Below are positions 1 through 11,520 of a stretch of 11,520 bases of DNA, in pieces. The position numbers and the translations under genes were made by a program. The stretch is from Promethearchaeota archaeon (GTDB taxonomy: Archaea > Asgardarchaeota > Lokiarchaeia > Sigyniarchaeales > SOKP01). Where the stretch lies: contig JABCSY010000119.1 in NCBI GenBank assembly GCA_018238625.1, positions 1 through 11,520 of the forward strand, written 5' to 3'. Within the stretch, counting starts at the first letter, position 1. Each line of letters opens with the position of its first letter. The notes beneath the pieces were generated by a model that had not been told where the DNA came from, ran no database searches, and saw only the letters and a list, made by a program, of their open reading frames with translations.

Positions 1-516
1 ACCAATAAGAAGGCCAAAAATGAATCCAAAGTTCCAAGAAAAATTAAAATTTCTAAAATTCTTATTTGACCTTTCAATAGTACTATTGGTTTGCCATTTG
101 CTTAATAAATTGAGGAAATTTGGCCAAACTAATCCCATGGTTAACCCTAAAAATACACGACACGTGATTAAATACCAAGGTTCGAAGTAAATCATCTGTG
201 CACCGGTTAAAATTGGAGTAACGAGCGATGATAATATGATAGCGTTGCGAACGCCTATTTTTGAAGTAAATACTTGCCCAATAATAGGTGCAAAGATATA
301 GGCAATTGCTCCTGCTGAGGTTATTATCCCTAAAGTGCTTTCATTAATGTCAACGACAAAATAGAGATAATTTGACAATGCTCTTTCAAAAATAGAAAAA
401 TAAATTAACCTTACAAACGCAAGCCAAAATATTGGCCAAGCTCGATAATCTTCTGACGATCGGTTCACTACTACTTTTTTATCCTGATAGAGTGGGGATT
501 TTTTCGCGGTTGGCAC
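1..516 (-). CDS. MFS transporter, N-terminal part (runs off the left edge)
   Basis: Not in the ORF track; translated by hand. The frame is open from GTG at 516 (in-frame TGA upstream at 525-523) to base 1: ...YRAWPIFWLAFVRLIYFSIFERALSNYLYFVVDINESTLGIITSAGAIAYIFAPIIGQVFTSKIGVRNAIILSSLVTPILTGAQMIYFEPWYLITCRVFLGLTMGLVWP...FNFSWNFGFIFGLLIG. It has successive TM helices, a motif-A-like loop (GQVFTSKIGVR) and the TM4 R-x3-G motif (CRVFLG). Start uncertain (alternative GTG at 468). Confidence 0.85.
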   Translation of the reverse strand, partial: MPTAKKSPLYQDKKVVVNRSSEDYRAWPIFWLAFVRLIYFSIFERALSNYLYFVVDINESTLGIITSAGAIAYIFAPIIGQVFTSKIGVRNAIILSSLVTPILTGAQMIYFEPWYLITCRVFLGLTMGLVWPNFLNLLSKWQTNSTIERSNKNFRNFNFSWNFGFIFGLLIG

Positions 517-762
517 AATTTTTCAATTTGTTTCTTATTTTTCATAAGAAATGGTGCTTTGCTCAAATATTTTTTTAAATTGTTAAATTAGATTCAAAAG
601 GTATTTTTTTAAGTCTTGTAGAATTGATTCCATTCGATTTTTCACGCCACTTCTTAAATATCGATGATGATTAAAAATTGGACTAAAAATCATTTTTTAA
701 TAGCTAATGTTGTTTTACTATTGTATAGTTTAAATTCGAATTATTATTAGCGTGAAAAGATT

Positions 763-1086
763 ATGACTGACACCAATTTTAATTATTGTCCCAATTGCGG
801 TAAGAAAATACAAAAGTCTAATAGTAAAAAGGTTAATTTTTGTTGTTATTGTGGGCGAGAATTAAAAAAACAGAAGATAAATTCACACGATAGAATACAA
901 TGCACAGTTTGTCACGAATTTATCTGGCATGGAAGAAGTCGAACTATTAAATGTTCTTTCTGCGGTAGTCAATACCATTATTCGTGCGTATCGTCTTGGA
1001 TAGCGAAGTATAACTCGTGTCCTATGTGCCAAAATGTATTCTTAAATCCAACTTTAGTTTTTTCGAAAAAACGCAGGTACAGGTAA
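763..1086 (+). CDS. Zinc-ribbon + RING-finger protein (putative E3 ubiquitin ligase-like)
   Basis: N-terminal CPNCG...FCCYCG zinc ribbon. C-terminal C47-x2-C50-x13-C64-x2-C67-x4-H72-x2-C75-x3-W79-x6-C86-P-x-C89. The H-x2-C-x3-W...CPxC tail is the RING E2-binding signature. Confidence 0.8.
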   Translation: MTDTNFNYCPNCGKKIQKSNSKKVNFCCYCGRELKKQKINSHDRIQCTVCHEFIWHGRSRTIKCSFCGSQYHYSCVSSWIAKYNSCPMCQNVFLNPTLVFSKKRRYR

Positions 1087-1094
1087 TAACACTT

Positions 1095-1146
1095 TATAAA
1101 ATATTATAAAATTCTATAAAAGAACTAAATTCCAATATTTTATAGA
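1095..1146. promoter_or_regulatory. Phased TATAAAA repeats and a 9-bp inverted repeat upstream of the ferredoxin gene (candidate TATA box/operator)
   Basis: TATAAAA at 1095, 1105 and 1115 (10-bp period). TCTATAAAA (1113-1121) is the reverse complement of TTTTATAGA (1138-1146), which lies about 22-30 nt before the ATG at 1168. Confidence 0.35.
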
Positions 1147-1167
1147 TAGTCAGAAGGTTGAAAATTT

Positions 1168-1944
1168 ATGAAAACTACAATCTATTATTTTTCTGGAACG
1201 GGTAATTCTTTGAAAATTGCGAGAGATATTGCCGAAAAGTTGGAAGAATGCGAATTAGTTCCAATTGCGAAGGTTTGGCAACAAGATCAGCTCGCATCGA
1301 CTAGTGAAAAAGTTGGTTTTATTTTTCCCTTGTATTATTTTGGTCTTCCTAAAATTGTCTACGATTTTACAAACAACATAGAGCTTGCTAAGTCCAACTA
1401 TTTTTTTGCCGTGGTTACGAGGGCTGGAAATGCGGATGGTGCGCCTTTGCAACAGTTAAACAATATTCTCGAAACTAAAACGAAAAAGCTTAACGCCGGA
1501 TTTTTTATCAGAATGCCCAGTAATTTTATAATAGGCTATAACACAGACTCAGAAACCGTACAAAATGAGTTTTTTGAGAACGCAATTAGTCAGGTTGAAA
1601 AAATTACCAATATTATTAAGGAAAACGGAGAAAGTTTTCAAAAAGAGACGAATATAAGCGAGAGAATGAATAAGAAGTTCCGGGATAAAGTTTACGCCAA
1701 CGACAAATCATTCTACGCTAACGAAAATTGTAATAACTGTGGTATGTGTGAAAGCGTATGTCCGGTTAATAATATCGTTCTTATAGAGAGTTTACCACAA
1801 TGGCAACATAAATGCCAGCAATGTTTGGCGTGCATAAATTATTGTCCCGAGGAAGCAATTCAATTTGGTACTAAATCCTTGGAAACAGGAAGATATCACC
1901 ACCCTGAAATTACAGTTCAAGATATAACGAACCAAAAAAAGTAA
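1168..1944 (+). CDS. EFR1-family ferredoxin (flavodoxin-like N-terminal domain + 2x[4Fe-4S] domain)
   Basis: YYFSGTGNSLKIA flavodoxin-type loop; GFIFPLY; RMPSNFI; two cluster motifs CNNCGMCESVCP and CQQCLACINYCP; C-terminal RYHHP. Confidence 0.9.
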   Translation: MKTTIYYFSGTGNSLKIARDIAEKLEECELVPIAKVWQQDQLASTSEKVGFIFPLYYFGLPKIVYDFTNNIELAKSNYFFAVVTRAGNADGAPLQQLNNILETKTKKLNAGFFIRMPSNFIIGYNTDSETVQNEFFENAISQVEKITNIIKENGESFQKETNISERMNKKFRDKVYANDKSFYANENCNNCGMCESVCPVNNIVLIESLPQWQHKCQQCLACINYCPEEAIQFGTKSLETGRYHHPEITVQDITNQKK

Positions 1945-1961
1945 TTCTCACGAATTATCGA

Positions 1962-2609
1962 TTAAAGATTTTGATAGTACAAACAATTTTCAGATAAGGG
2001 ACAAAGCTCGCATTTAGGATTATTTTTCGAGCAGATTTTGTTTCCAAAATCAAGAATCGCCCAATACATGTGTTTACAACCCGTCTTAGGCAATAAACGA
2101 TCTAAATTTGCGTGAATAACTTCATTTTTTACTTTTGAGTTTGAAGGTTCGAACGCTCTCGAAACAAACCTTTTAATATTTACATCAACAAAAAAGGTTC
2201 TTCTGTCTAATCCAAAACACAAAAAGGCGTTGCTTACATAATCGGCAATTCCGTTGATTTTTTTAAGTATTTCAGGATCGAGAGGGATTTCTCCGTTATA
2301 TTCCGTTAATACCATCGCACTTAAGTCTTTCAAAGTTTTAGCGCGTTTGTTGGATAGCCCTAAAATTTCAATATCTGATTGTAGCTGATTAATTTTAGCC
2401 TTGGAAATGTCGGCAAAGCCTTTATATTTTGCAAAAAAATCGTTATACATATTAGAAACGTTTATAGCGATAGTTTTCTGTAGTAAAATTTCTACTACCA
2501 ATACTTGATATAGGTTTTTTGATTTTCTCCAAGGGAAATCGCGTTTGTTTTCGCTGTACCAATCTAAAATTTTATTTCTAATTGAGATATAGTTATCTTC
2601 TTTATCCAT
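1962..2609 (-). CDS. mig: HhH-GPD DNA glycosylase, MIG-like (T:G/U:G mismatch glycosylase) with a [4Fe-4S] cluster
   Basis: RDFPWR; EILLQKT (catalytic Glu); GLSNKRA (Mig.MthI has GLSNQRA, as recalled); HhH GIADY with Tyr at the Nth lyase-Lys position; catalytic VDVN; FeS motif CSKNNPKCELCPLSENC. At 215 aa it lacks the MutY C-terminal domain. It sits next to a C5-MTase. Confidence 0.8.
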   Translation of the reverse strand: MDKEDNYISIRNKILDWYSENKRDFPWRKSKNLYQVLVVEILLQKTIAINVSNMYNDFFAKYKGFADISKAKINQLQSDIEILGLSNKRAKTLKDLSAMVLTEYNGEIPLDPEILKKINGIADYVSNAFLCFGLDRRTFFVDVNIKRFVSRAFEPSNSKVKNEVIHANLDRLLPKTGCKHMYWAILDFGNKICSKNNPKCELCPLSENCLYYQNL

Positions 2610-2711
2610 TTCTTATCTATTTTTAATCGTTATTGTTATTAATTAAGTATTAGTTAGATTTTATTCTTATTATTGATTTTTTCATTTAGTACTGATTCTT
2701 CTAATATTAAA

Positions 2712-3848
2712 ATGCCGGAAAAAAATAATATCATTATAGATCTGTTTTGTGGAGCTGGAGGTTTATCGCTAGGTTTTGAAATGGCAAATTTTAAAATTGA
2801 TTTAGCGATAGAATTAGAAGAAAATTATTATAGAGCGTATAAAGGAAATCATCCTGAAACTTTATCACTAAATAAAGATATAACCAATTTAAATTGCAAA
2901 GATATCTCTAATAAATACCTTAAAAACAAAGAAATAGAGGGGATAATTGGCGGACCTCCATGTATCGGATTTTCTACGGTTGGAAATAGAAGACCAGACG
3001 ACCCTCGTAATACGCTGATCTTTTATTTTATTCAATGGATTGAACACTTTAAACCGAAATTTTTCGTTATGGAAAACGTTCCTGGAATTCTCTCTATGGG
3101 GAATGGTAAAGTGGTAGAAAAAGTTTTCAATTTGTACAAAGAAATAGGTTATGCTTGTAAGATGGAAACATTATTAGCAGCCGATTACGGAGTCCCACAA
3201 TTGCGGCAGAGAGTATTTTTTATAGGAACCCAAAGTAATTCGGTGTCTTCGTTAAAAATCCAAAAAACTAACGAAAACAATAGTGAAGAGAAATCAGATT
3301 TAGGGAAAAATGCGTTACCTCCTTATTTGACCGTTCAAGACGCAATTTCCGATATTATTATTATAGAGCCTTTTATAAAAAAGCGCACGGATGATATGAT
3401 TAAAAAGTATTCTCACCAACCTAAAACGCAATATCAAAAATATCTAAGAAAAAATTCAACTGGATTATTCGATCATTTTGCCCCAAATCACAGCGAATTA
3501 GTAATGAAAAGGATTTCTCACATTGATCAAGGTAAGAACCATAGTTCTTTGCCGAAGGAATACCAACTTAAAGGAGGATATCCTAATATATACGGTAGGC
3601 TTCATTTAAATAAACCAGCTGATACTATTACGGGAAATTGTGGTTGTGTGAGCGCCCCAGGTAGATTTATCCATCCTACGCAAAACAGAGCGATTTCCGT
3701 TAGAGAAGCCGCGCGATTGCAGTCTTTCCCGGACAATTATAGGTTTTGTGGAAGTATGAGAGATAAGTACAAGCAAGTTGGAAACGCAGTACCACCATTA
3801 ATGGCTTACGCCGTTGCGAAATCAATCGATCAATTATTAAAAATTTAA
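2712..3848 (+). CDS. DNA (cytosine-5)-methyltransferase, orphan within this window
   Basis: Conserved C5-MTase motifs in order: I DLFCGAGG, IV GGPPCIGFS, VI ENVPG, VIII QLRQRVFF, variable TRD, IX RAISVREAARLQSFPD, X QVGNAVPP. ATG at 2712 is preferred over the track's TTG at 2673 because motif I normally sits near the N-terminus. Confidence 0.95.
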   Translation: MPEKNNIIIDLFCGAGGLSLGFEMANFKIDLAIELEENYYRAYKGNHPETLSLNKDITNLNCKDISNKYLKNKEIEGIIGGPPCIGFSTVGNRRPDDPRNTLIFYFIQWIEHFKPKFFVMENVPGILSMGNGKVVEKVFNLYKEIGYACKMETLLAADYGVPQLRQRVFFIGTQSNSVSSLKIQKTNENNSEEKSDLGKNALPPYLTVQDAISDIIIIEPFIKKRTDDMIKKYSHQPKTQYQKYLRKNSTGLFDHFAPNHSELVMKRISHIDQGKNHSSLPKEYQLKGGYPNIYGRLHLNKPADTITGNCGCVSAPGRFIHPTQNRAISVREAARLQSFPDNYRFCGSMRDKYKQVGNAVPPLMAYAVAKSIDQLLKI

Positions 3849-3885
3849 CTAAGCAGGTTAAAAATTGTTTTGGTTATTTTATTAG

Positions 3886-4425
3886 TTATTCTTTAGATGC
3901 TTTATACATCTCTAATGCTAATTTAGTAAAAACATCGTCAATTTTAGTCCCAAGTTTCGCGCTTGTTTCATAATATTCGTAAGCAGTCAATACTTGTTTG
4001 AGATTATTAGTATCGTCCAATTTAATAATCCTAGCTTCGTGATCTATCAAATCAAGCTTGTTCCCTACTAAAATATTTGGTTGTACGCCGATTTTACTCT
4101 CAACTTCTTCTTTCCATGTTAACAAATTATTAAACGTTTCTTTACGCGTTAAGTCGAATGTATACACAATTCCTTTCGCGCCTTTATAAAACGCGTATCT
4201 AACCCATCTAAAATAGGCTTGTCCAGCTAAATCCCATATCTGGAGGGTCAATAAGTGCTCTGTTTCGGGAAGTTTAATATATTTCACAAAAAAGTTAGAA
4301 CCGATCGTTCTTTGGGCGTTAGGGATAAATCTTCTCTTTAGATATTGATTTAACATAGTAGTTTTACCTACTTCAGAGTCCCCGACAATACACACTTTAA
4401 AAAATAACTTGTTGTAGCCAACCAT
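3886..4425 (-). CDS. Rab-like small GTPase (Ras superfamily; eukaryotic signature protein)
   Basis: G1 GDSEVGKT, G2 TIGSNF, G3 WDLAGQ, G4 NKLD, G5 ETSAK. Rab-like LQIWD and FYKGAKG segments. Ends ...MYKASKE with no hypervariable tail or Cys prenylation motif. Confidence 0.93.
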   Translation of the reverse strand: MVGYNKLFFKVCIVGDSEVGKTTMLNQYLKRRFIPNAQRTIGSNFFVKYIKLPETEHLLTLQIWDLAGQAYFRWVRYAFYKGAKGIVYTFDLTRKETFNNLLTWKEEVESKIGVQPNILVGNKLDLIDHEARIIKLDDTNNLKQVLTAYEYYETSAKLGTKIDDVFTKLALEMYKASKE

Positions 4426-4433
4426 TTTTGGTT

Positions 4434-4502
4434 TGCTTAAATATTACTTAAATATGCCTAATTTTAATTGTGATATAAAGTTTATAATTTTATATTTAAG
4501 CA
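4434..4502. promoter_or_regulatory. Symmetric divergent promoter region with repeated ATATTTAAG elements
   Basis: CTTAAATAT occurs directly repeated at 4436-4444 and 4447-4455. TGCTTAAATAT (4434-4444) is a perfect 11-bp inverted repeat of ATATTTAAGCA (4492-4502). The minus-strand copy at 4455-4447 lies 22-30 nt before the GTPase ATG, which is archaeal TATA-box spacing. Confidence 0.5.
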
Positions 4503-4576
4503 TAAATTTATTCTAAGAGTAAGTTATTCTTTTAAAAAAAATAAAGAAATAAATCAACAAACTTGGACTGTTTAAC

Positions 4577-5764
4577 ATGACTAAGGATTTAAAAGATTTA
4601 ATAGATATGGCTGAAGAAGACGAGAAAACTCGAGCCCAATTGGAAGAAAGCGTTGAAACTCTAAAGCGTGAGATCGTTAAGTTAAATAAAAAATTAGAAG
4701 AGAAAACATCTTTAACCAAAATTGATTCTGTAAAGCCAATTGAAGATTTTAATGAATCTGAAGAAATAAATATTTTAAAAGGTTTAATCGCTTCACAGAA
4801 GCAAGAGCTAGCAGATAAAATTCGTGATACAGAAGTTCTACAACAGAAAATGGAAGAAGCAAACCTCGAATTAGAAAACATTAGAGATACATTTACTGAT
4901 TCTGTTAAAGACCAAGTTTTAATAAAAACTCAAAATTCGCTTAATAACCTGATTGAAGATTACGGGAGACTAGAGGGTACTATTAAATCGTTAAACGAAA
5001 AAATCTCTGAATTAGAGAAAGAAAACAAACGACTGGCTGAAAGCTCAACTGACTTAAAATCTGAAAGCTCTAATGTGGAACAATTGGAAGCAAAAATATA
5101 CGGGCTAAAAAGACAACTAAAGGATTTTGAAAGAAGCAAAAAATTACTCGAAGAAAACATTAATACCTTAAAAAGCAAGCAAAGCTCTGTTGAGGAATTA
5201 GAGAACAGAAATATAGAATTAAAAGAAGAAAAACAACAATTAAAAGAAGATTTAAAAGCCGCAAAGACCGACCTATTTAAATTTTCCAAAAAAGAAGAGA
5301 AAGTATCCGAATTAAAGAATAAAATCGAAGAGCTAGAAAAAGCTAACAAAAATCTTAAAGAAAAAGATACGCTTTTGCTAGCTAAAACTATTACTGCGAT
5401 AAACGTGCCAAAAAGAGAGCACGCACCAGTTTTAAAAGATACGCCATTAAAAACAGAAAAAGTTTTAAAAGTTGATTCAGAAGTAAAGCAAGAAAAACCG
5501 CAAGAACAAACAAAAGATTTACCGCAAAAGTTAGAAATAAACTTAGAACCAACTTCAGAAACTAAAGAAATATTGAATGAGAACGAAATACCAATTGCTC
5601 CTTCTGAAGTTCCAGTTACTCGCAAAAAAAAGTGTCCAAAATGTGGAAATACTAATAAATCGCAAATTCGAGAAGTCGACGATAAAACCAGAATAATATA
5701 TACCTACCCAAAGATATACGCTAAAATGTATAAATGCGGTCAATGCGGAGCGGAATGGCGATAA
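4577..5764 (+). CDS. Long coiled-coil protein with P/E/K-rich linker and C-terminal C4 zinc ribbon
   Basis: Residues ~1-270 are E/K/L-rich heptads. Residues ~275-350 are Pro-containing low complexity. The C-terminus is C353-x2-C356-x30-C387-x2-C390-GAEWR. No P-loop and no TM segment. Confidence 0.85.
   Translation: MTKDLKDLIDMAEEDEKTRAQLEESVETLKREIVKLNKKLEEKTSLTKIDSVKPIEDFNESEEINILKGLIASQKQELADKIRDTEVLQQKMEEANLELENIRDTFTDSVKDQVLIKTQNSLNNLIEDYGRLEGTIKSLNEKISELEKENKRLAESSTDLKSESSNVEQLEAKIYGLKRQLKDFERSKKLLEENINTLKSKQSSVEELENRNIELKEEKQQLKEDLKAAKTDLFKFSKKEEKVSELKNKIEELEKANKNLKEKDTLLLAKTITAINVPKREHAPVLKDTPLKTEKVLKVDSEVKQEKPQEQTKDLPQKLEINLEPTSETKEILNENEIPIAPSEVPVTRKKKCPKCGNTNKSQIREVDDKTRIIYTYPKIYAKMYKCGQCGAEWR
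4940..5395 (+). repeat. Four tandem 38-aa (114-nt) coiled-coil quasi-repeats
   Basis: Units start at 4940 (LNNLIEDYGRLEGTIKSL), 5054 (LKSESSNVEQLEAKIYGL), 5168 (LKSKQSSVEELENRNIEL) and 5282 (FSKKEEKVSELKNKIEEL). Hydrophobic residues align at positions 1, 8, 11, 18 and 25 in all four units. Confidence 0.65.
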
Positions 5765-5765
5765 T

Positions 5766-5780
5766 AAAAATCGATTTTTT
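5766..5780. terminator. Candidate bidirectional T-tract terminator between convergent genes
   Basis: Perfect 14-bp palindrome AAAAATCGATTTTT (5766-5779) directly after the coiled-coil stop codon. It gives an oligo-T run on each strand. Confidence 0.35.
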
Positions 5781-5811
5781 AGAGTAAAATTAAAATTTAC
5801 ATCACTAATCA

Positions 5812-6291
5812 TTAGACGCTCGATATAAATTGTCGAGAAAAATTCTTGATTTCGTCTCGATGAAGCTCACTTTTAATTTCTTTTTTAGTTATTGCAAGCG
5901 TTGATACTGGTGTCTTCTCGCATAATTTTGCCATGCTTTCAAAAGTTTCAGGTCCACCTTTCCCGCCCATTGTACAAAAAAATGCTACGCTTTTAAATCG
6001 TTCTTTATTTTCAGTAATATACGTTCTTATTGCAGGGGTCATTCTCTTGTTCCAAATAGGAGTTCCTAGAATAACTGCTTCGTATAATTTAGGATCTTTC
6101 TGCATTTCTTTAATAACAGTCAATTTTTCCCTTGTAGCGGCAAAGCCTGATTTTACAAAGCCAATAAAACGTCCTTTTCGCTTTTTAGTATCAATAATTT
6201 CTTCGTATTCACAGTTCATTTCTGTCGAAATCGATTCAGCAATTTTTTTAGTTGTACCCGTTCTTGAATAAAACACCAACAAACATTTCAT
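5812..6291 (-). CDS. Flavodoxin-family protein
   Basis: FMN-phosphate loop VFYSRTGTTKKIA; VILGTPIWN; VAFFCTMGG. Confidence 0.9.
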   Translation of the reverse strand: MKCLLVFYSRTGTTKKIAESISTEMNCEYEEIIDTKKRKGRFIGFVKSGFAATREKLTVIKEMQKDPKLYEAVILGTPIWNKRMTPAIRTYITENKERFKSVAFFCTMGGKGGPETFESMAKLCEKTPVSTLAITKKEIKSELHRDEIKNFSRQFISSV

Positions 6292-6372
6292 AATGATTTA
6301 ATTCTCTAAAAACTTAAAAAATTATTTGTAATAATTAATAGAATCAGTCTTTTCTTAACCTTAGTTCTCTTT

Positions 6373-6933
6373 TCATTTTGGATGCAACTTAATTATTGTA
6401 ATCATATTCAACATTTTTGAGAAATCGGTTGTTTCTGGTTCGTCAATTTTCGGATTCCAACCGAAAAGCGCTTTTGCTGCCCTTCCGTGGTTTACCACGT
6501 ACCATTTCATAACATTGAGCTTTTGATCCTCATCAATTACAAATTCTAATTGCGGTTGGAAACGGTGAAAGCCGTGTCTTACAGATGTAGCGTCAGGATA
6601 AACGCGCATGTTTTTCATCCACCCTGCGTCTTCTCCTCTACTAGAGAAAATCGTTATAACGCCTTCTATCCAATGGTATTCTAATGGAGTCCTCCTTTTT
6701 TTTCCAGTTATTCTTCCTTTTGTCGTTAGAACGAGAAATATCCTTCCAATACCAAAAAGTGGCAAAATTCTTAGTCGATATAAAGGAAGGACTAAAAATT
6801 TATTAGCTATTCTCCATTTTCTAAGCGTTTTTTTCCTAATGTTCTCATCTTCGTGATTTAAATTATAAAGGGGAGAACCTCGCCTTGGTAAAAGCTCTGC
6901 TTCGTTTGATTTAACCTTTTTTGAGGGAGTCAA
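6373..6933 (-). CDS. Deazaflavin (F420)-dependent nitroreductase-family oxidoreductase (DDN/FDOR-A)
   Basis: Signature LVLTTKGRITGKKRRTPL, followed by SSRG...GWMKNMR (family consensus LxTxGRxSGxxRxxPL...WxxNL). TTG start. Confidence 0.8.
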   Translation of the reverse strand: MTPSKKVKSNEAELLPRRGSPLYNLNHEDENIRKKTLRKWRIANKFLVLPLYRLRILPLFGIGRIFLVLTTKGRITGKKRRTPLEYHWIEGVITIFSSRGEDAGWMKNMRVYPDATSVRHGFHRFQPQLEFVIDEDQKLNVMKWYVVNHGRAAKALFGWNPKIDEPETTDFSKMLNMITIIKLHPK

Positions 6934-7049
6934 TATGTTTCTTCCACTTAATTTTTTTTATTCTTGTTATTGTGTCTTTAAGACGATTTATAGTTATAGT
7001 TATCCATGATATAAAAGAATTTAAACGAGGTAATTTTTAACAACTAGCA

Positions 7050-8069
7050 ATGATTTTATTTTCAATTATATTTTTGATAATAGGCTTTATTGGACTGACC
7101 ATAGGATCAAAATTCATAATAATCGGACTCGAAAATATTGCCGATCGCTTACATATTAGCCATATAATGGTGGGTCTCACGATTTTAGCGATTGGGACTA
7201 GTTTACCTGAAATCGCCGTGAGCGTAATGGGCGGTTTTGATAAGCTTTTAGGTATAGATCCAAATATTGATGGAATAGTCATTGGAAATAAAGTAGGGTC
7301 TTTTTTAACTCAAATCACGCTAATTATTGGAATTTTAGCGGTGGCTCAGCCGCTCATGGTTAGTAAGTGGGAATTGAGAAGAGAAGGTCCTATGCTTTTT
7401 ATCTCTGTATTGATTTTTCTTATTTTTTCCCTTGATGGTCTTATTACTCAATTCGAAGCGCTATTAATGATAATTTCGTATTTCTTATACCTTTTATTAA
7501 TAATCTGGAGCGAAAAGCGTTTGGCAAAAGCTAAACCGGAAGTTCGCTTTGCTGAAAAAGAACGCTTAGATCCTATGAGTTTTGACCCCATTGAGAGTCA
7601 TCACAAAAAATCGTCCCTTTTTAAAGATATCAGCTATACTTTAGTTGGCCTTCTAATTTTATTAGTCACAGCAGAATTCACATTACTCTCTGCTCACGAT
7701 TTAGCGAGAGAGTTTAACATCCCAGAAAACGTCATAGGGATACTAATCGTTGGTTTTGGAACAAGTTTACCAGAATTAGTAGCTGATTTAACGGCTATAA
7801 GGAGAGGGTCTCATGGAATTGCTATGGGTGATATATTAGGCTCTAATATATGTGATATCTTATTAGCCACAGGTTCAGGAGCAATAATTGTTAATTTTAA
7901 CGTCCCGATGGTAATTCTGATTTTCGACATTCCAGTTCTCTTATTAGCTTTATCAATTACATTATATCTCCTATGGACCCACAAAACTTTGAAAAAATGG
8001 GAAGGAGTGTTATTAATTGGTTTTTATGGCGTTTACGTAATCGTGAAATTGTTATTCTTTCAAATTTAA
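7050..8069 (+). CDS. Calcium/sodium antiporter (CaCA superfamily, YrbG/NCX_Mj-like)
   Basis: Two alpha repeats, AIGTSLPEI...GNKVGS and GFGTSLPEL...GDILGSNICDI. About 10 TM helices with a central hydrophilic loop. Confidence 0.92.
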   Translation: MILFSIIFLIIGFIGLTIGSKFIIIGLENIADRLHISHIMVGLTILAIGTSLPEIAVSVMGGFDKLLGIDPNIDGIVIGNKVGSFLTQITLIIGILAVAQPLMVSKWELRREGPMLFISVLIFLIFSLDGLITQFEALLMIISYFLYLLLIIWSEKRLAKAKPEVRFAEKERLDPMSFDPIESHHKKSSLFKDISYTLVGLLILLVTAEFTLLSAHDLAREFNIPENVIGILIVGFGTSLPELVADLTAIRRGSHGIAMGDILGSNICDILLATGSGAIIVNFNVPMVILIFDIPVLLLALSITLYLLWTHKTLKKWEGVLLIGFYGVYVIVKLLFFQI

Positions 8070-8256
8070 AGGGCAATTGTTAGCAACTATAGCATTTAAT
8101 ATTTTAAATTCAAACAAATTATCGATTTACTTAAAATACACAAGAATTATATTATTGTTTATCTAAATGATATTATTTAAGAAACTAAATATTTGGGGAT
8201 AAAAAATTCAAATAGAGCAGCAACAAAATTCAGAATGGGGAAAACGCACCTTAAAC

Positions 8257-10596
8257 ATGAAACAAAAAGTAATTAGGCAATCTCATGAAATTTGTATCGA
8301 GAGAGCTATGTTAATTACGGAATCCTATAGAAAAACAAAAAGAGAGTTTCCTGTAATTCGATTTGCAAAAGCTATCAGCCATATCTTGCAAAATATGACG
8401 ATTAAAATCTGGGACGATGAAGTAATTGTAGGTAACCGGTGTTCAAAATTAGTAGGGACCCCATTATATCCTGAAATTAGAGTGGATACTTTAGAGCAAG
8501 ATTGTGACTCTTACGATTCACGTTTAGTCCAACCACTTTTCTTGTCCGATGAAGATAGACAAATTTTAAAGGAAGATATCATTCCGTATTGGAAACATGA
8601 GGATCAAACAGTTCAAGATAGGTATTATGGTTATTTGAATGATGATGAAAAAGCCATTCGGGAAAAATTATTATTTATTGGGGATGCGGAACTTACGAAT
8701 GGTATCGGTCATTTTTTCCCAGGTCACGAAAATGTTTTAAAGTATGGAATCAACGGTTTAATCCAAAAATCTAAAGAAAAATTAAATGGTTTAGTTGAAT
8801 TAAAATCAGAAGAAATTGATAAAAAAATGTTTTTTGAATCCATTATTATAGTATGTAATGGAATAAAAGAATTCATTAAGAGGTTTTCAAAATTAGCTAA
8901 TACCTTAGCAACAAATGAGCCAAATCTAGAACGCCAAAGAGAACTTCTGGAAATTTCTGAAGTATGTTATAATATCTCCGAATATCCGCCAAATTCGTTT
9001 AATGAAGCATTACAACTCATTTATTTTACTCATATAATATGTTGTTTAGAGGATGGTGGTTTCGCAATAAGTATAGGGCGTTTAGATCAATATTTATATC
9101 CATACTATAACAAAGATAAGATGGAGGGGAAAATATCGCCCGAAAAAGCTCAGTTTTTAATTGAAGGTTTTTACATAAAACTTGCAAGCTTATGGAACTA
9201 TCTGCCTACTCAAGGCATTGTAGCTTCAGAAGGGCCACCAATTGCCGCAAATGTAACTATCGGGGGGCTTGATTGTAATGGAAAAGATGTAACAAATGAG
9301 TTGACTTTTATATTATTAGACGCATACACCAATCTTAAGACCGTACAACCTACATTTTCTATTAGAATCCATAAGAACACACCTGAAGATTTGCTTGTTA
9401 GAGTTACTGAAAGCATAAAATCAGGTACCAGTATTGCTTTATTTAACGATGATGTAATAATTAGCGGACTTATAAATCGTGGTTTTACTCTTGAGGATGC
9501 TCGAGAATATGCCTTGGTGGGATGTGTGGAACCACAACATCCACATAAATCATTTGGGTCAACCAATTCGAATCAAATAAATATTGTAAAATGTTTAGAA
9601 TTGGCACTTAACTCGGGAATCGACATGTTTACTAGAAGGGAATATGGAGTAACTAAGGAAACAAAAATTACATCTTATGAAGATTTATGGGATGCTTTTG
9701 CAAAAGAAATGAAATATTTCATTAAACATATGGTTTCAATGATGAACTCTCTTGATAAAGCAACGGCTGAACTTGCTCCACAGCCATTCTTATCTGCAAT
9801 TACTGACGATTGTATTGAAAAAGCACTAGATATTACAAAAGGAGGTGCTATTTACAACTTTACTGGGCCCCAGTTAATTGGTTTAGCTACAGTAGCAGAT
9901 AGCCTTGCTGTAATTAAGAAGCTAATATTTGAAGAAAAAACTCTTCCTTTTGGAGTATTAGTTGAAATGCTTAAAAAAAATTACAGAGGGTCTTTTCAAG
10001 GAAAAAAAGGAGAGGAATGGAGGAAAATCTTTATTAATAAAGTTCCAAAATTTGGAAACGATAATGATTTTGTTGATTCAATCGCGGCAGACGTAGTAAA
10101 ATTATATTGCGATGAAATTTCGAAGTATGAAAATTATCGTGGAGGAAAATTCAATCCTGGACTTTATTCGACTTCTTTTCACCTAGCATTGGGTTTTTTT
10201 ACAGCGGCATCAGCTAATGGTAGAAAATCAAGAGAAACCCTCTCTAATGGTGTTGGTCCTACTCATGGTAATGATAAGAACGGTCCTACTGCCATTCTTA
10301 ATTCAGTTAAGAAACTAAACAACGAATTATTAACTAATGGTAATTCTCTAATTTTAGCATTTCATCCAAATACAATAAAGCCTGATATTTTTATACCTAT
10401 GATTCGATCATTTTTTGTACCTCACGGTGGTCTACAAGTACAATTTAACGTTGTTGGCAAAGATATTCTATGTAATGCTCAAGAACATCCTGATAATTAC
10501 CGCGGGCTAGTCGTAAGGATTGCGGGTTATTCAGTTTTATTTACAGAACTATCTAAAAACGCCCAAGATGAAATTATTGCTCGAACTCAATTTTGA
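8257..10596 (+). CDS. Glycyl-radical enzyme, PFL2/glycerol-dehydratase-like family, substrate unknown
   Basis: Cys loop GCVEP; glycyl-radical motif LVVRIAGYS; ICIERA; GRLDQYLYPYY; NVTIGG; PKFGND; SANGRK; QVQFNVV. The true start may be upstream, at about 8206. Confidence 0.93.
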   Translation: MKQKVIRQSHEICIERAMLITESYRKTKREFPVIRFAKAISHILQNMTIKIWDDEVIVGNRCSKLVGTPLYPEIRVDTLEQDCDSYDSRLVQPLFLSDEDRQILKEDIIPYWKHEDQTVQDRYYGYLNDDEKAIREKLLFIGDAELTNGIGHFFPGHENVLKYGINGLIQKSKEKLNGLVELKSEEIDKKMFFESIIIVCNGIKEFIKRFSKLANTLATNEPNLERQRELLEISEVCYNISEYPPNSFNEALQLIYFTHIICCLEDGGFAISIGRLDQYLYPYYNKDKMEGKISPEKAQFLIEGFYIKLASLWNYLPTQGIVASEGPPIAANVTIGGLDCNGKDVTNELTFILLDAYTNLKTVQPTFSIRIHKNTPEDLLVRVTESIKSGTSIALFNDDVIISGLINRGFTLEDAREYALVGCVEPQHPHKSFGSTNSNQINIVKCLELALNSGIDMFTRREYGVTKETKITSYEDLWDAFAKEMKYFIKHMVSMMNSLDKATAELAPQPFLSAITDDCIEKALDITKGGAIYNFTGPQLIGLATVADSLAVIKKLIFEEKTLPFGVLVEMLKKNYRGSFQGKKGEEWRKIFINKVPKFGNDNDFVDSIAADVVKLYCDEISKYENYRGGKFNPGLYSTSFHLALGFFTAASANGRKSRETLSNGVGPTHGNDKNGPTAILNSVKKLNNELLTNGNSLILAFHPNTIKPDIFIPMIRSFFVPHGGLQVQFNVVGKDILCNAQEHPDNYRGLVVRIAGYSVLFTELSKNAQDEIIARTQF

Positions 10597-10719
10597 ATGC
10601 AATTTTTTAAAATCTTAAAACAAAAGTAATCTAATAATTTGAACCATCTTTATAATCATTTAAATACAGATTGATATCTATTATTCATGTAATAAAATAT
10701 TATAGGGTGCAATATTAAA

Positions 10720-11520
10720 ATGTCATTATTCGAATTACTTCCCGCTTTTGTTGGTTATATTTTGTGTGGATTGGCAATTATTCACGCATTACTTGATGCG
10801 CGCGAAAACCGTGTACAACGATTTTTAATGTTAGTAACTTTATTCGTTTTTGGATTCTTGTTGGAATATATGGGGGTTATTACTGGGCATTATGTATACG
10901 CCGCAGAGGCCGTCATGATTTGTGGGATTATACCCTTATCAGTTTCTTTTGCTTGGGTAGGGATCATTTATAGTGCTATGATAATTGGCGAACGTTTAAA
11001 GCTTTCTGTATGGCAGCGAATACTTACCACTACCTTAATAGCCCTTAGTCTAGATTGGGGTATGGACCCAATTGCTGTTGAATTCGGAGCGTGGACTTGG
11101 TTGCATTCAGGTGGAGTCTATTTTGACGTTCCCGGTTTTAATTTTATTGGTTGGTTTTTCATTCCAATCGCTTATTTAATACCATATGGGCTAAGCCGGA
11201 ATAAAGAAAGTAAGAAATTTCAACTATTGACTATTAATGAAATAGATGAAAACAACTCCTTAGGGCGAAAATTATACACATGCTTGGTTGTAGTACCAAT
11301 AGCAATGGGCGTTTTATTCATTGTAGGAACGATTTGCAGAATAGAAGTTATATACTACTTGAATTGGATAATTCTATTGATTTGGATGCTTTTTACCGTC
11401 GTATTTGCTGCAGGAACGATCGTATGGAAGCGTGAAAACTTAAAACATTCCAAATGGTTTGATCTAATCCCTCCAACGATTCTATTATTTATAGCTTATT
11501 TCTACTTGATTTATAGTCTC
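10720..11520 (+). CDS. CruF-like carotenoid-biosynthesis (1,2-hydratase/DUF422) family membrane protein (runs off the right edge)
   Basis: Not in the ORF track; translated by hand from ATG 10720, open for 267 codons to the edge: MSLFELLPAF...LLEYMGVITGHYVY...IPLSVSFAWVGIIY...LDWGMDPIAVEFGAWTW...YFDVPGFNFIGWFF. The E-x2-G-x2-TG, P-x6-W, D-x3-DP-x7-W-x-W and VP-x2-NF-x-GW motifs are characteristic of the family. Confidence 0.8.
   Translation, partial: MSLFELLPAFVGYILCGLAIIHALLDARENRVQRFLMLVTLFVFGFLLEYMGVITGHYVYAAEAVMICGIIPLSVSFAWVGIIYSAMIIGERLKLSVWQRILTTTLIALSLDWGMDPIAVEFGAWTWLHSGGVYFDVPGFNFIGWFFIPIAYLIPYGLSRNKESKKFQLLTINEIDENNSLGRKLYTCLVVVPIAMGVLFIVGTICRIEVIYYLNWIILLIWMLFTVVFAAGTIVWKRENLKHSKWFDLIPPTILLFIAYFYLIYSL

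Follow-up and report, generated by a model that had tools for sequence, protein, structure and literature searches.

The stretch of DNA analysed here (the window, 11,520 nucleotides) covers positions 1-11520 of a contig in G000, the 4.29-Mb, 201-contig genome of a Promethearchaeota archaeon (98% complete, 7.6% contamination). It contains two divergently oriented genes, one for a short HhH-GPD glycosylase and one for a cytosine-5 (C5) DNA methyltransferase, and this pair, a potential writer of 5-methylcytosine (5mC) next to a potential repair enzyme for T:G mispairs, is the subject of the current study. The open reading frame (ORF) listing and the Pfam and NCBIfam scans of the window give the following order of features.

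1-516, minus strand: MFS transporter
763-1086, plus strand: RING-like (RING/PHD-like) zinc finger protein
1168-1944, plus strand: EFR1-family ferredoxin
1962-2609, minus strand: Mig-type HhH-GPD glycosylase, 215 amino acids (PF00730)
2610-2711: divergent spacer, 102 bp, 84% A+T by sequence and composition, presumed bidirectional promoter region
2712-3848, plus strand: C5 DNA methyltransferase, 378 amino acids (PF00145, TIGR00675), likely target ACGT
3886-4425, minus strand: Ras-family GTPase
4577-5764: coiled-coil protein, 395 amino acids, with weak SMC/Rad50-like matches and a C-terminal zinc-ribbon-like Cys cluster

The glycosylase and methylase genes lie head-to-head and both flanking genes converge on them, the ferredoxin gene ending 17 bp from the glycosylase stop and the Ras-family GTPase gene ending 37 bp from the methylase stop. 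Among the 14 window ORFs scanned, Pfam gave no match to restriction endonuclease, Vsr, transposase or integrase families. These results agree with an earlier note on this DNA, which had described a head-to-head pair across an AT-rich spacer of about 100 bp, neighbours converging on the pair (here the ferredoxin gene on the plus strand and the GTPase gene on the minus strand) and no endonuclease, Vsr or mobility gene adjoining it. The same note had placed the DNA on a putative Asgard chromosome. The public relatives of the methylase form at least 120 clusters (51-95% identity), and those named by source are Lokiarchaeota, Promethearchaeota or Hermodarchaeota, thus confirming the Asgard setting.

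The longest ORF form of the methylase starts with a TTG at 2673 and ends at 3848. Since an ATG matching that at 2712 is common to 11 of the 11 translated orthologues, we take the gene as 2712-3848 and the spacer as 2610-2711. Judged from its sequence, the protein is an intact C5 DNA methyltransferase, scoring 245.7 bits against PF00145 (E 1e-72, cut-off 22) and 197 bits against TIGR00675 (cut-off 100.65). It carries, in order, the motifs I FCGAGG (12-17), IV GPPC84-I-GFS, VI E121-N-V, VIII Q163-L-R-Q-R167, IX REAARLQSFPD and X GNAVPP, which are kept in all 13 methylases translated, including that of the congener G274. The target-recognition domain (TRD) lies between motifs VIII and IX and is conserved across the clade. 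The best matches among solved structures are 3g7u (167 bits), DNMT1 chains (about 145 bits) and M.HaeIII (140 bits), with Dnmt2 far lower. No other PF00145 gene is present in G000.

The glycosylase ORF belongs to the HhH-GPD family (PF00730, E 4e-13). When compared with all solved structures, its best relative is Mig.MthI (1kea; 146 bits, E 1e-41), versus 75-89 bits for the MutY proteins of E. coli and Geobacillus and at most 64 bits for endonuclease III (Nth). Its residues E40, D142 and Y124 align with E42, D144 and Y126 of Mig.MthI, and A48, F25 and R28 correspond to A50, F27 and R30. The residues F27, R30, A50, Y126 and L187 of Mig.MthI, as opposed to L22, Q25, V45, S120 and Q182 of MutY, have been described as occupying the positions of thymine versus adenine specificity (PMC2714593). 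At four of these five positions the window glycosylase has exactly the Mig-type residue (F25, R28, A48 and Y124), and at the fifth, that of Mig.MthI L187 and MutY Q182, it has W183, a hydrophobic Trp and not Gln. A C-terminal [4Fe-4S] loop is formed by C193-X6-C200-X2-C203-X5-C209, and because the protein stops right after this loop, at residue 215, it lacks the C-terminal 8-oxoguanine (8-oxoG)-recognition domain of MutY. The phylogeny was assessed in a tree of 52 rows in which the orthologues were joined by further Asgard HhH-GPD proteins, by Mig.MthI and two proteins from plasmids, and by Nth and the MutY N-terminal domain, both from E. coli. The glycosylase falls in a 20-member orthologue clade (support 100/100) outside the MutY and Nth clades; the E. 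coli MutY clade (99/96) comprises MutY, an Asgard class of about 290 amino acids and three other proteins, and Nth is the outgroup. By score, residues and architecture the glycosylase thus appears Mig-like and excluded from MutY and Nth, and activity on T:G mispairs is predicted. G000 has two HhH-GPD genes, the other being Nth-like and located on contig C199.

In an alignment of 10 orthologous spacers the only long near-invariant run is a 36-bp block at 2635-2670, GTTATTAATTAA.TATTA.TT..ATTTTATTCTTAT, while the proteins drop to 59-80% identity. This block bears two A/T-rich TATA-like stretches in opposite orientations; 26 nt separate it from the start codon of the glycosylase and 41 nt from that of the methylase. 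It probably represents a compact bidirectional archaeal promoter, and it is our sole ground for suggesting that both genes are co-regulated. A sigma-70 scan of 1850-3950, a model that is not informative for an archaeon, gave 15 promoter-like sites versus 9.3 +/- 3.5 in shuffled sequences, and a scan of the same region found no terminators. Of the 11 loci compared, 10 have a spacer of 80-135 bp, and the congener G028 has one of 629 bp. There, a 126-amino-acid ORF of no known family (L037:5571-5951, G028:C70) is inserted between the promoter block and the methylase, leaving the block on one side and the last approximately 25 bases before the methylase ATG on the other.

Within the genus (42 genomes), an orthologue of the glycosylase occurs in 17 genomes at 59-100% identity. 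In 12 of these (G000, G026, G274, G008, G016, G028, G034, G031, G027, G002, G004 and G007) the methylase is divergently adjacent, in the common order MFS-RING-ferredoxin-Mig-methylase-Ras-coiled coil. In four others (G011, G013, G014 and G271) the methylase is missing and the glycosylase lies right beside the Ras gene, and on the short contig of G024 another ORF stands at the methylase position. A methylase 67-68% identical is encoded elsewhere in the genomes of G011, G013 and G271, and no PF00145 match was found in G014 and G024. Both genes are therefore present in 15 genomes of the genus and the glycosylase only in two, with one further genome, G020, in which the syntenic methylase is cut by the contig end. 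G020 and G030, whose contigs stop inside or beside the locus, were left unscored. A reading of the G007 and G274 genes as pseudogenes was rejected; their apparent internal stops lie at or after the true gene ends, and both genes are thus intact.

Beyond the genus, the divergent pair is found in two genomes of another genus (G192 and G193), between genes for an aminoacyl-tRNA synthetase and an amidohydrolase and genes for serine hydroxymethyltransferase and an RNA polymerase subunit, while in a further genus (G213) the glycosylase and the methylase are tail-to-tail. Adjacency in 12 of the 17 genus genomes and in three genomes of two other genera shows that the association is not due to chance. 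The methylase clade as such is patchy, with 21 of the 134 family genomes containing a member at E 1e-40 or better. The ratio of nonsynonymous to synonymous substitution rates (dN/dS) was determined over 11 pairs for each gene; at 0.09-0.29 (glycosylase) and 0.09-0.18 (methylase), it shows both genes to be under purifying selection. The naming of the glycosylase as MIG in the earlier note is supported by the scores, residues and clade positions given above, and the search for the divergent pair across Asgard genomes that the note suggested found its synteny conserved.

Inserts between the methylase and the Ras gene are present in some genomes and encode a flavin adenine dinucleotide (FAD) oxidoreductase, a TnpB-like transposase, an M23 peptidase and proteins without a Pfam family; the insert of G016 (L036:9564-10844, G016:C63) holds an IS605-type TnpB (OrfB/Cas12f-like) and a FAD oxidoreductase. 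In one subclade of the genus (L047:3038-5313, L046, L039, L043, L041 and L042), proteins of about 362 and 379 amino acids without Pfam match and an ORF of 108-111 amino acids lie between the RING and Mig genes, all of which are absent from the window. In G213 (L061:1600-2676, G213:C14), the Mig orthologue is immediately preceded, in the same orientation, by a gene for an N6/N4-type DNA methylase. The empty site could not be read in the non-carrier congeners, as the best coiled-coil homologues there are not beside a Ras homologue.

Tetramer frequencies point, if indirectly, to ACGT as the likely methylation target. Observed/expected ratios were calculated under a maximal-order Markov model, using samples of 9-200 kb from each of 28 congeners and of 8-82 kb per genome in other genera. 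In the whole genome G000, ACGT is the most under-represented tetramer (0.55). Ten other genomes with the pair have ratios of 0.37-0.65 (pooled, 496 observed versus 989 expected), G274 has 0.47, and the three genomes with a relocated methylase (G011, G013 and G271) have 0.43, as compared with 0.63-1.23 in the twelve genus genomes with neither gene (pooled, 592 versus 595.6). In the genus of G192 and G193, ratios are 0.24 for G193, 0.60 for G192 and 0.17 for G196, versus 0.97 for G195 and 0.66 for G194; G213 shows 0.55 versus 0.73 in G212, a weak contrast. In another family, G161 has the lowest value, 0.15 (15 versus 100.9), against 0.93 in three congeners (129 versus 138.4). Five non-Asgard loci with the methylase, when pooled, contain 9 ACGT sites versus 30.6 expected. 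Overall, carriers of the methylase clade have ratios of 0.15-0.65 and pooled non-carrier congeners of 0.93-0.99 across four genera. In the comparison within the genus, all other tetramers differ by at most 0.17, apart from ACGC and ACGA, for which part of the excess is due to the model. The deficit is equal in all ten NACGTN contexts and in ORF and non-ORF DNA (0.55 and 0.55), and this evenness suggests a target of four bases and a process that is blind to coding. Among other words in G000, the GGNNCC hexamers GGTACC, GGATCC, GGCGCC, GGAACC, GGGACC and GGAGCC are all at 0.69-0.76 of expectation, and CTAG (0.68) and GGCC (0.72) are low as well, the latter two equally so in non-carrier congeners.

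Considering these findings, we think it likely that the locus is a domesticated, restriction-free pair, made up of a solitary ACGT 5mC writer and a dedicated Mig-type T:G repair glycosylase. In the scheme that we propose, the methyltransferase would use its nucleophile Cys84 and S-adenosylmethionine as methyl donor to form 5-methylcytosine, most likely at the palindrome ACGT, which contains a CpG. Deamination of this base would give a T:G mispair (ATGT opposite ACGT) that is beyond the reach of uracil glycosylases. The glycosylase, as a monofunctional enzyme with a [4Fe-4S] cluster, may then flip out and remove the T (or U) opposite G by means of the catalytic Asp142 together with Glu40, Tyr124 and a hydrophobic methyl pocket formed by F25, R28, A48 and W183. 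Base-excision repair would restore C:G, after which the site could be remethylated. With both genes read outward from one short promoter region, writer and repair enzyme would be made together. As to its biological purpose, such a mark might shield the genome from ACGT restriction systems in circulation, or it might, as the earlier note suggested, be epigenetic.

Several observations weigh against this interpretation. The usual Q after PC in motif IV is replaced by I, M or L in the 13 methylases translated. The HhH hairpin of the glycosylase reads N-G-I-A and not the usual P-G-V-G, with Gly-Ile-Ala kept in 11 of 11 translated orthologues, and residue 183 is Trp and not Leu. The tree backbone that holds Mig.MthI is a polytomy, in which the glycosylase clade and Mig.MthI do not come out as sisters. 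Regarding the ACGT footprint, several non-carrier samples are small (9-20 kb), with single ones down to 0.63-0.73. The carriers and non-carriers of the genus also form separate subclades (coiled-coil identity at least 49% in one and at most 45% in the other), so the genus counts as one contrast and there are four contrasts in all, that of G213 and G212 being the weak one. Under a base-composition-only expectation, absolute ACGT is alike in two of the genera, at 0.26-0.40 in carriers versus 0.30-0.39 in non-carriers; in those two genera all other NCGN words are 1.2-2 times commoner in carriers, which makes the ACGT deficit one relative to a raised CpG background. In the remaining two genera ACGT is lower in absolute terms (0.20 versus 0.43 and 0.09 versus 0.58). 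The ratio is also low in the two genomes with the glycosylase and no methylase detected (G014, 0.50, and G024, 0.46; together 0.49), and the deficit could therefore partly be a relic. ACAT/ATGT, which deamination would produce, shows an excess (+0.14, rank 5 of 136 tetramer classes), and the excess of ACGC/GCGT (+0.38) and of ACGA/TCGT (+0.22) is larger. Site avoidance would also be expected from an ACGT endonuclease of the past or from one that has gone unrecognised. Finally, among the 23 sequencing runs listed, no RNA run contains the locus, and 20 DNA runs from 10 studies contain all or part of the stretch.

The alternative that survives best, and that we consider unlikely, is that of a restriction-modification system, still functional or very recently decayed, with an endonuclease that is unrecognised or encoded elsewhere and with ACGT depletion as restriction avoidance. 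By Pfam, endonuclease families are missing from the window, from the gaps and inserts of the 17 orthologous loci and from the loci of the two other genera. Likewise, Vsr (PF03852) has no match in G000 at E 0.01 or better, and a tblastn search of this genome with the Vsr of locus L233 found none. In the 12 syntenic loci the pair is moreover flanked on both sides by conserved housekeeping genes. At ten further loci of the phylum a Mig-like gene adjoins a different C5 methylase, and at four of them Pfam found an endonuclease, namely HNH (G016:C5 and G026:C317), RE_HpaII (G053:C40) and RE_HaeII (G059:C127). These loci serve as a positive control, so that the blank at the window locus is not merely insensitivity. 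A Mig-like gene also stands beside a C5 methylase on pFV1 (Mig.MthI) and on two bacterial plasmids, and on a Caldicellulosiruptor plasmid a PLD endonuclease adjoins the divergent methylase/glycosylase pair. Triads of Mig, methylase and endonuclease are thus common and detectable, and the window locus is of a different type.

On the other hand, the methylase clade has relatives that speak for an origin in restriction-modification. A search of species-representative genomes with the TRD alignment gave 28 loci, mostly of Promethearchaeota or Hermodarchaeota. Five are non-Asgard and come from Methanovirga and from metagenome-assembled genomes (MAGs) of Methanobacteriaceae, Staskawiczbacteria, Nanoarchaeota and Nanohaloarchaea. 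In three of the five (Methanobacteriaceae, Nanoarchaeota and, frameshifted, Methanovirga) the same-TRD methylase is adjoined by an HNH-like protein of about 240 amino acids (CxxC...H...CxxC), and the Methanobacteriaceae locus has a Vsr as well. The same protein is encoded at G026:C240 beside a second methylase copy of that congener, and a homologue on a Thermus plasmid adjoins a methylase not annotated as a cytosine-5 enzyme. The members found (L054:811-1530, which is G026:C240; L233:4802-5512; L235:4499-5239; L236:4908-5614; and L241:3815-4663) always lie beside a DNA methylase, and the family has no Pfam, NCBIfam or solved relative. It is probably the cognate endonuclease, of an undescribed Type II family whose site may be ACGT. 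A tree of the methylases unites the 12 syntenic copies in a clade of their own (100/99), which is part of a Lokiarchaeial clade (98/99); the endonuclease-linked copy of G026 is nested in this larger clade as well, and the non-Asgard endonuclease-linked copies fall outside it.

The candidate endonuclease was found in one of 400 Asgard genomes (G026) and absent from G000 by tblastn, and among the 241 collected loci no remnants were seen except at G026:C240 (counted twice) and at the non-Asgard loci. Based on these sequence comparisons, the methylase family appears to descend from restriction-modification systems, and the window copy to be a long-resident solitary derivative. The earlier note had called the methylase an orphan without restriction endonuclease. 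This holds for the 17 syntenic loci and for the loci of the other two genera, and it does not hold in the sense of a primordial orphan: because the same-TRD relatives at G026:C240 and in non-Asgard archaea adjoin the candidate endonuclease, once together with Vsr, orphan here means domesticated.

The evenness of the ACGT deficit over contexts and compartments suits avoidance as well as mutation, and since the k-mer excesses exceed the number of lost ACGT sites, the test of k-mer neighbours is ambiguous between deamination and avoidance. At aligned sites of seven close genomes, in a small sample with crude counting, ACGT was the least conserved of the NCGN words, with 1 of 19 columns invariant versus 34 of 196 for the others, and had the largest share of CpG transitions, which made up 10 of 21 single-step variants versus 64 of 184 at the other NCGN words; both differences run in the expected direction. 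Taking these counts together with the failure to find the candidate endonuclease in scanned carriers other than G026, we favour methylation-driven decay as roughly twice as likely as restriction avoidance.

It seems quite unlikely that the methylase is silent or inactive today, with the ACGT deficit as a fossil or as the product of another cause that co-varies with phylogeny. The persistence of the depletion in G014 and G024 and the coincidence of the genus contrast with one phylogenetic split would fit this explanation, and a persistent archaeal 5mC methylase has been reported to give negligible methylation in its native host (PMC10609329). Against this, the methylase is under purifying selection with its catalytic motifs kept in 13 of 13 translated copies, and three more genera, including one from another family, show the deficit along with the methylase clade.

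A glycosylase that acts in general repair, as a MutY substitute on A:G or A:8-oxoG or as an Nth-like enzyme, and for which the adjacency of the methylase is meaningless, is very unlikely in our view. The best NCBIfam model is mutY (TIGR01084, E 1.5e-42), with 146 bits far under the cut-off of 286.5 and a match that spans model positions 2-210 of 277; the nth model also matches far under its own cut-off. In a scan of 61 genomes, the MutY-like class of about 290 amino acids was missing in G000 and its four closest relatives (G008, G016, G026 and G028) and present in most other genus members. The glycosylase moreover persists without an adjacent methylase in five genomes, and weak activity on A:G has been described for Mig.MthI itself (PMC2714593). 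The missing MutY C-terminal domain and the position outside the MutY clade argue against such a role, as does the replacement of the adenine-specificity residues V45 and Q182 by Ala and Trp. Several unrelated Mig-like clades also include genes that adjoin a C5 methylase, and the MutY-like clade of the tree includes none. A writer-eraser pair, in which the glycosylase would also excise 5mC like plant DME/ROS1 and make epigenetic marks reversible, is most improbable: the HhH-GPD/[4Fe-4S] superfamily is shared with DME/ROS1, the hydrophobic pocket fits a C5 methyl group and ROS1 is reported to excise both 5mC and T (PMC2715244), but Tyr124 stands where bifunctional HhH enzymes have their catalytic Lys (in MIG, Y126K is described as creating a lyase; PMC9945173), the protein is a single domain of 215 amino acids without DME-type inserted or extra domains, and neither DME/ROS1 nor MBD4 chains are among its 32 solved relatives.

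The restriction-free writer and T:G repair pair proposed here has its closest known counterpart in Mig.MthI/MthTI on pFV1 of Methanothermobacter thermautotrophicus, where a short MutY-like HhH-GPD/[4Fe-4S] glycosylase is likewise encoded next to a C5 methylase. Mig.MthI has about 35% identity to the window glycosylase (blastp/tblastn) and shares with it the E, D, Y, A, F and R pocket residues. pFV1, however, is a plasmid on which an NgoPII-family endonuclease gene lies between the methylase and mig, whereas the genes described here are chromosomal, syntenic in the genus and divergent, with no endonuclease; the MthTI target is GGCC and the target suggested here ACGT. The dcm-vsr pair of E. coli and ScmA/VsrA of Caulobacter are also described as restriction-free combinations of a 5mC writer with an enzyme that reverses 5mC-to-T damage (PMC12907096). 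They repair by the Vsr nicking endonuclease and have overlapping or unlinked genes, in contrast to the predicted base-excision glycosylase and the divergent genes of the window. Among archaea, a REBASE survey described an orphan CCWGG 5mC group in Crenarchaeota, similarly a lineage-conserved solitary C5 methylase whose role is unknown (PMC10609329). In the part of that survey available to us no linked repair gene is mentioned, unlike in the present case with its linked glycosylase and patchy clade, and its single Asgard genome is listed without a 5mC methylase gene (PMC10609329). The target suggested here is that of M.MaeII of Methanococcus aeolicus, described as an archaeal 5mC methylase at ACGT (PMC10113651), a likeness that concerns the suggested target. 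MaeII is, unlike the window pair, a complete restriction-modification system.

Eukaryotes also combine CpG-context 5mC with a T:G glycosylase, in DNMT1 with MBD4/TDG, and MBD4 is an HhH-GPD enzyme. Unlike this eukaryotic combination, the window pair has no reader or regulatory domains. A published phylogeny gives no robust sister relation between Asgard and eukaryotic DNMTs (PMC12344493). We therefore make nothing of the DNMT1 score, and the pair has no bearing on the origin of the eukaryotic DNMTs.

In the literature searched, we found no description of such a pair of a Mig and an orphan methylase; supplementary REBASE specificity tables may already assign the site of the relatives. What appears to be new is the combination of the glycosylase with an orphan, chromosomally fixed methylase, which by analogy would work like dcm-vsr and Mig.MthI/M.MthTI. 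The about two-fold under-representation of ACGT in carriers of the methylase clade is new as well. As 5mC writers are mutagenic, how cells pay for them is a general question, and the pair leads to a concrete prediction, 5mC at ACGT in carriers. With carriers, glycosylase-only genomes, one methylase-only genome and non-carriers, these archaea also offer a natural experiment to gauge to what extent the decay of sites through methylation is countered by a T:G glycosylase, and whether such an enzyme biases genome composition.

A broader pattern was observed for CpG. In three genera, the CpG observed/expected ratio of genomes that have a glycosylase orthologue is 0.83-1.19 and that of congeners lacking it 0.55-0.86, whether ORF or non-ORF DNA is considered. 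The raised CpG is accompanied by a fall in TpG/CpA, which in G000 is, by a rough estimate, about the size of the CpG gain. G161, which has the methylase and in which this query found no glycosylase orthologue, combines the deepest ACGT deficit with no rise in CpG (0.86 versus 0.89). With three contrasts and one methylase-only genome as support, it is possible, though doubtful, that some Lokiarchaeia carry a stable, restriction-free 5mC mark at ACGT together with a glycosylase whose T:G-to-C:G bias goes beyond guarding these sites and acts genome-wide, erasing the CpG deficit seen in relatives without it, with continued decay of ACGT where it is methylated. A precedent exists in very-short-patch repair, which affects oligonucleotide frequencies in E. 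coli. If true, this would be a repair enzyme visibly shaping genome composition and a prokaryotic parallel of DNMT with MBD4/TDG in the closest archaeal relatives of eukaryotes.

The remaining genes of the window follow the coiled-coil gene and encode a flavodoxin, an F420H2-related protein, a Na/Ca exchanger, a PFL-like glycyl-radical enzyme and a carotenoid-synthesis protein. The region of the pair is flanked by the RING/PHD-like zinc finger gene (763-1086) and the Ras-family GTPase gene (3886-4425), the latter being the conserved right-hand neighbour of the pair; RING/PHD-like zinc fingers and Ras-family GTPases occur widely among eukaryotes and are a typical feature of Asgard genomes. The coiled-coil protein (4577-5764) evolves fast, with identities from 36% to 85% within the genus.

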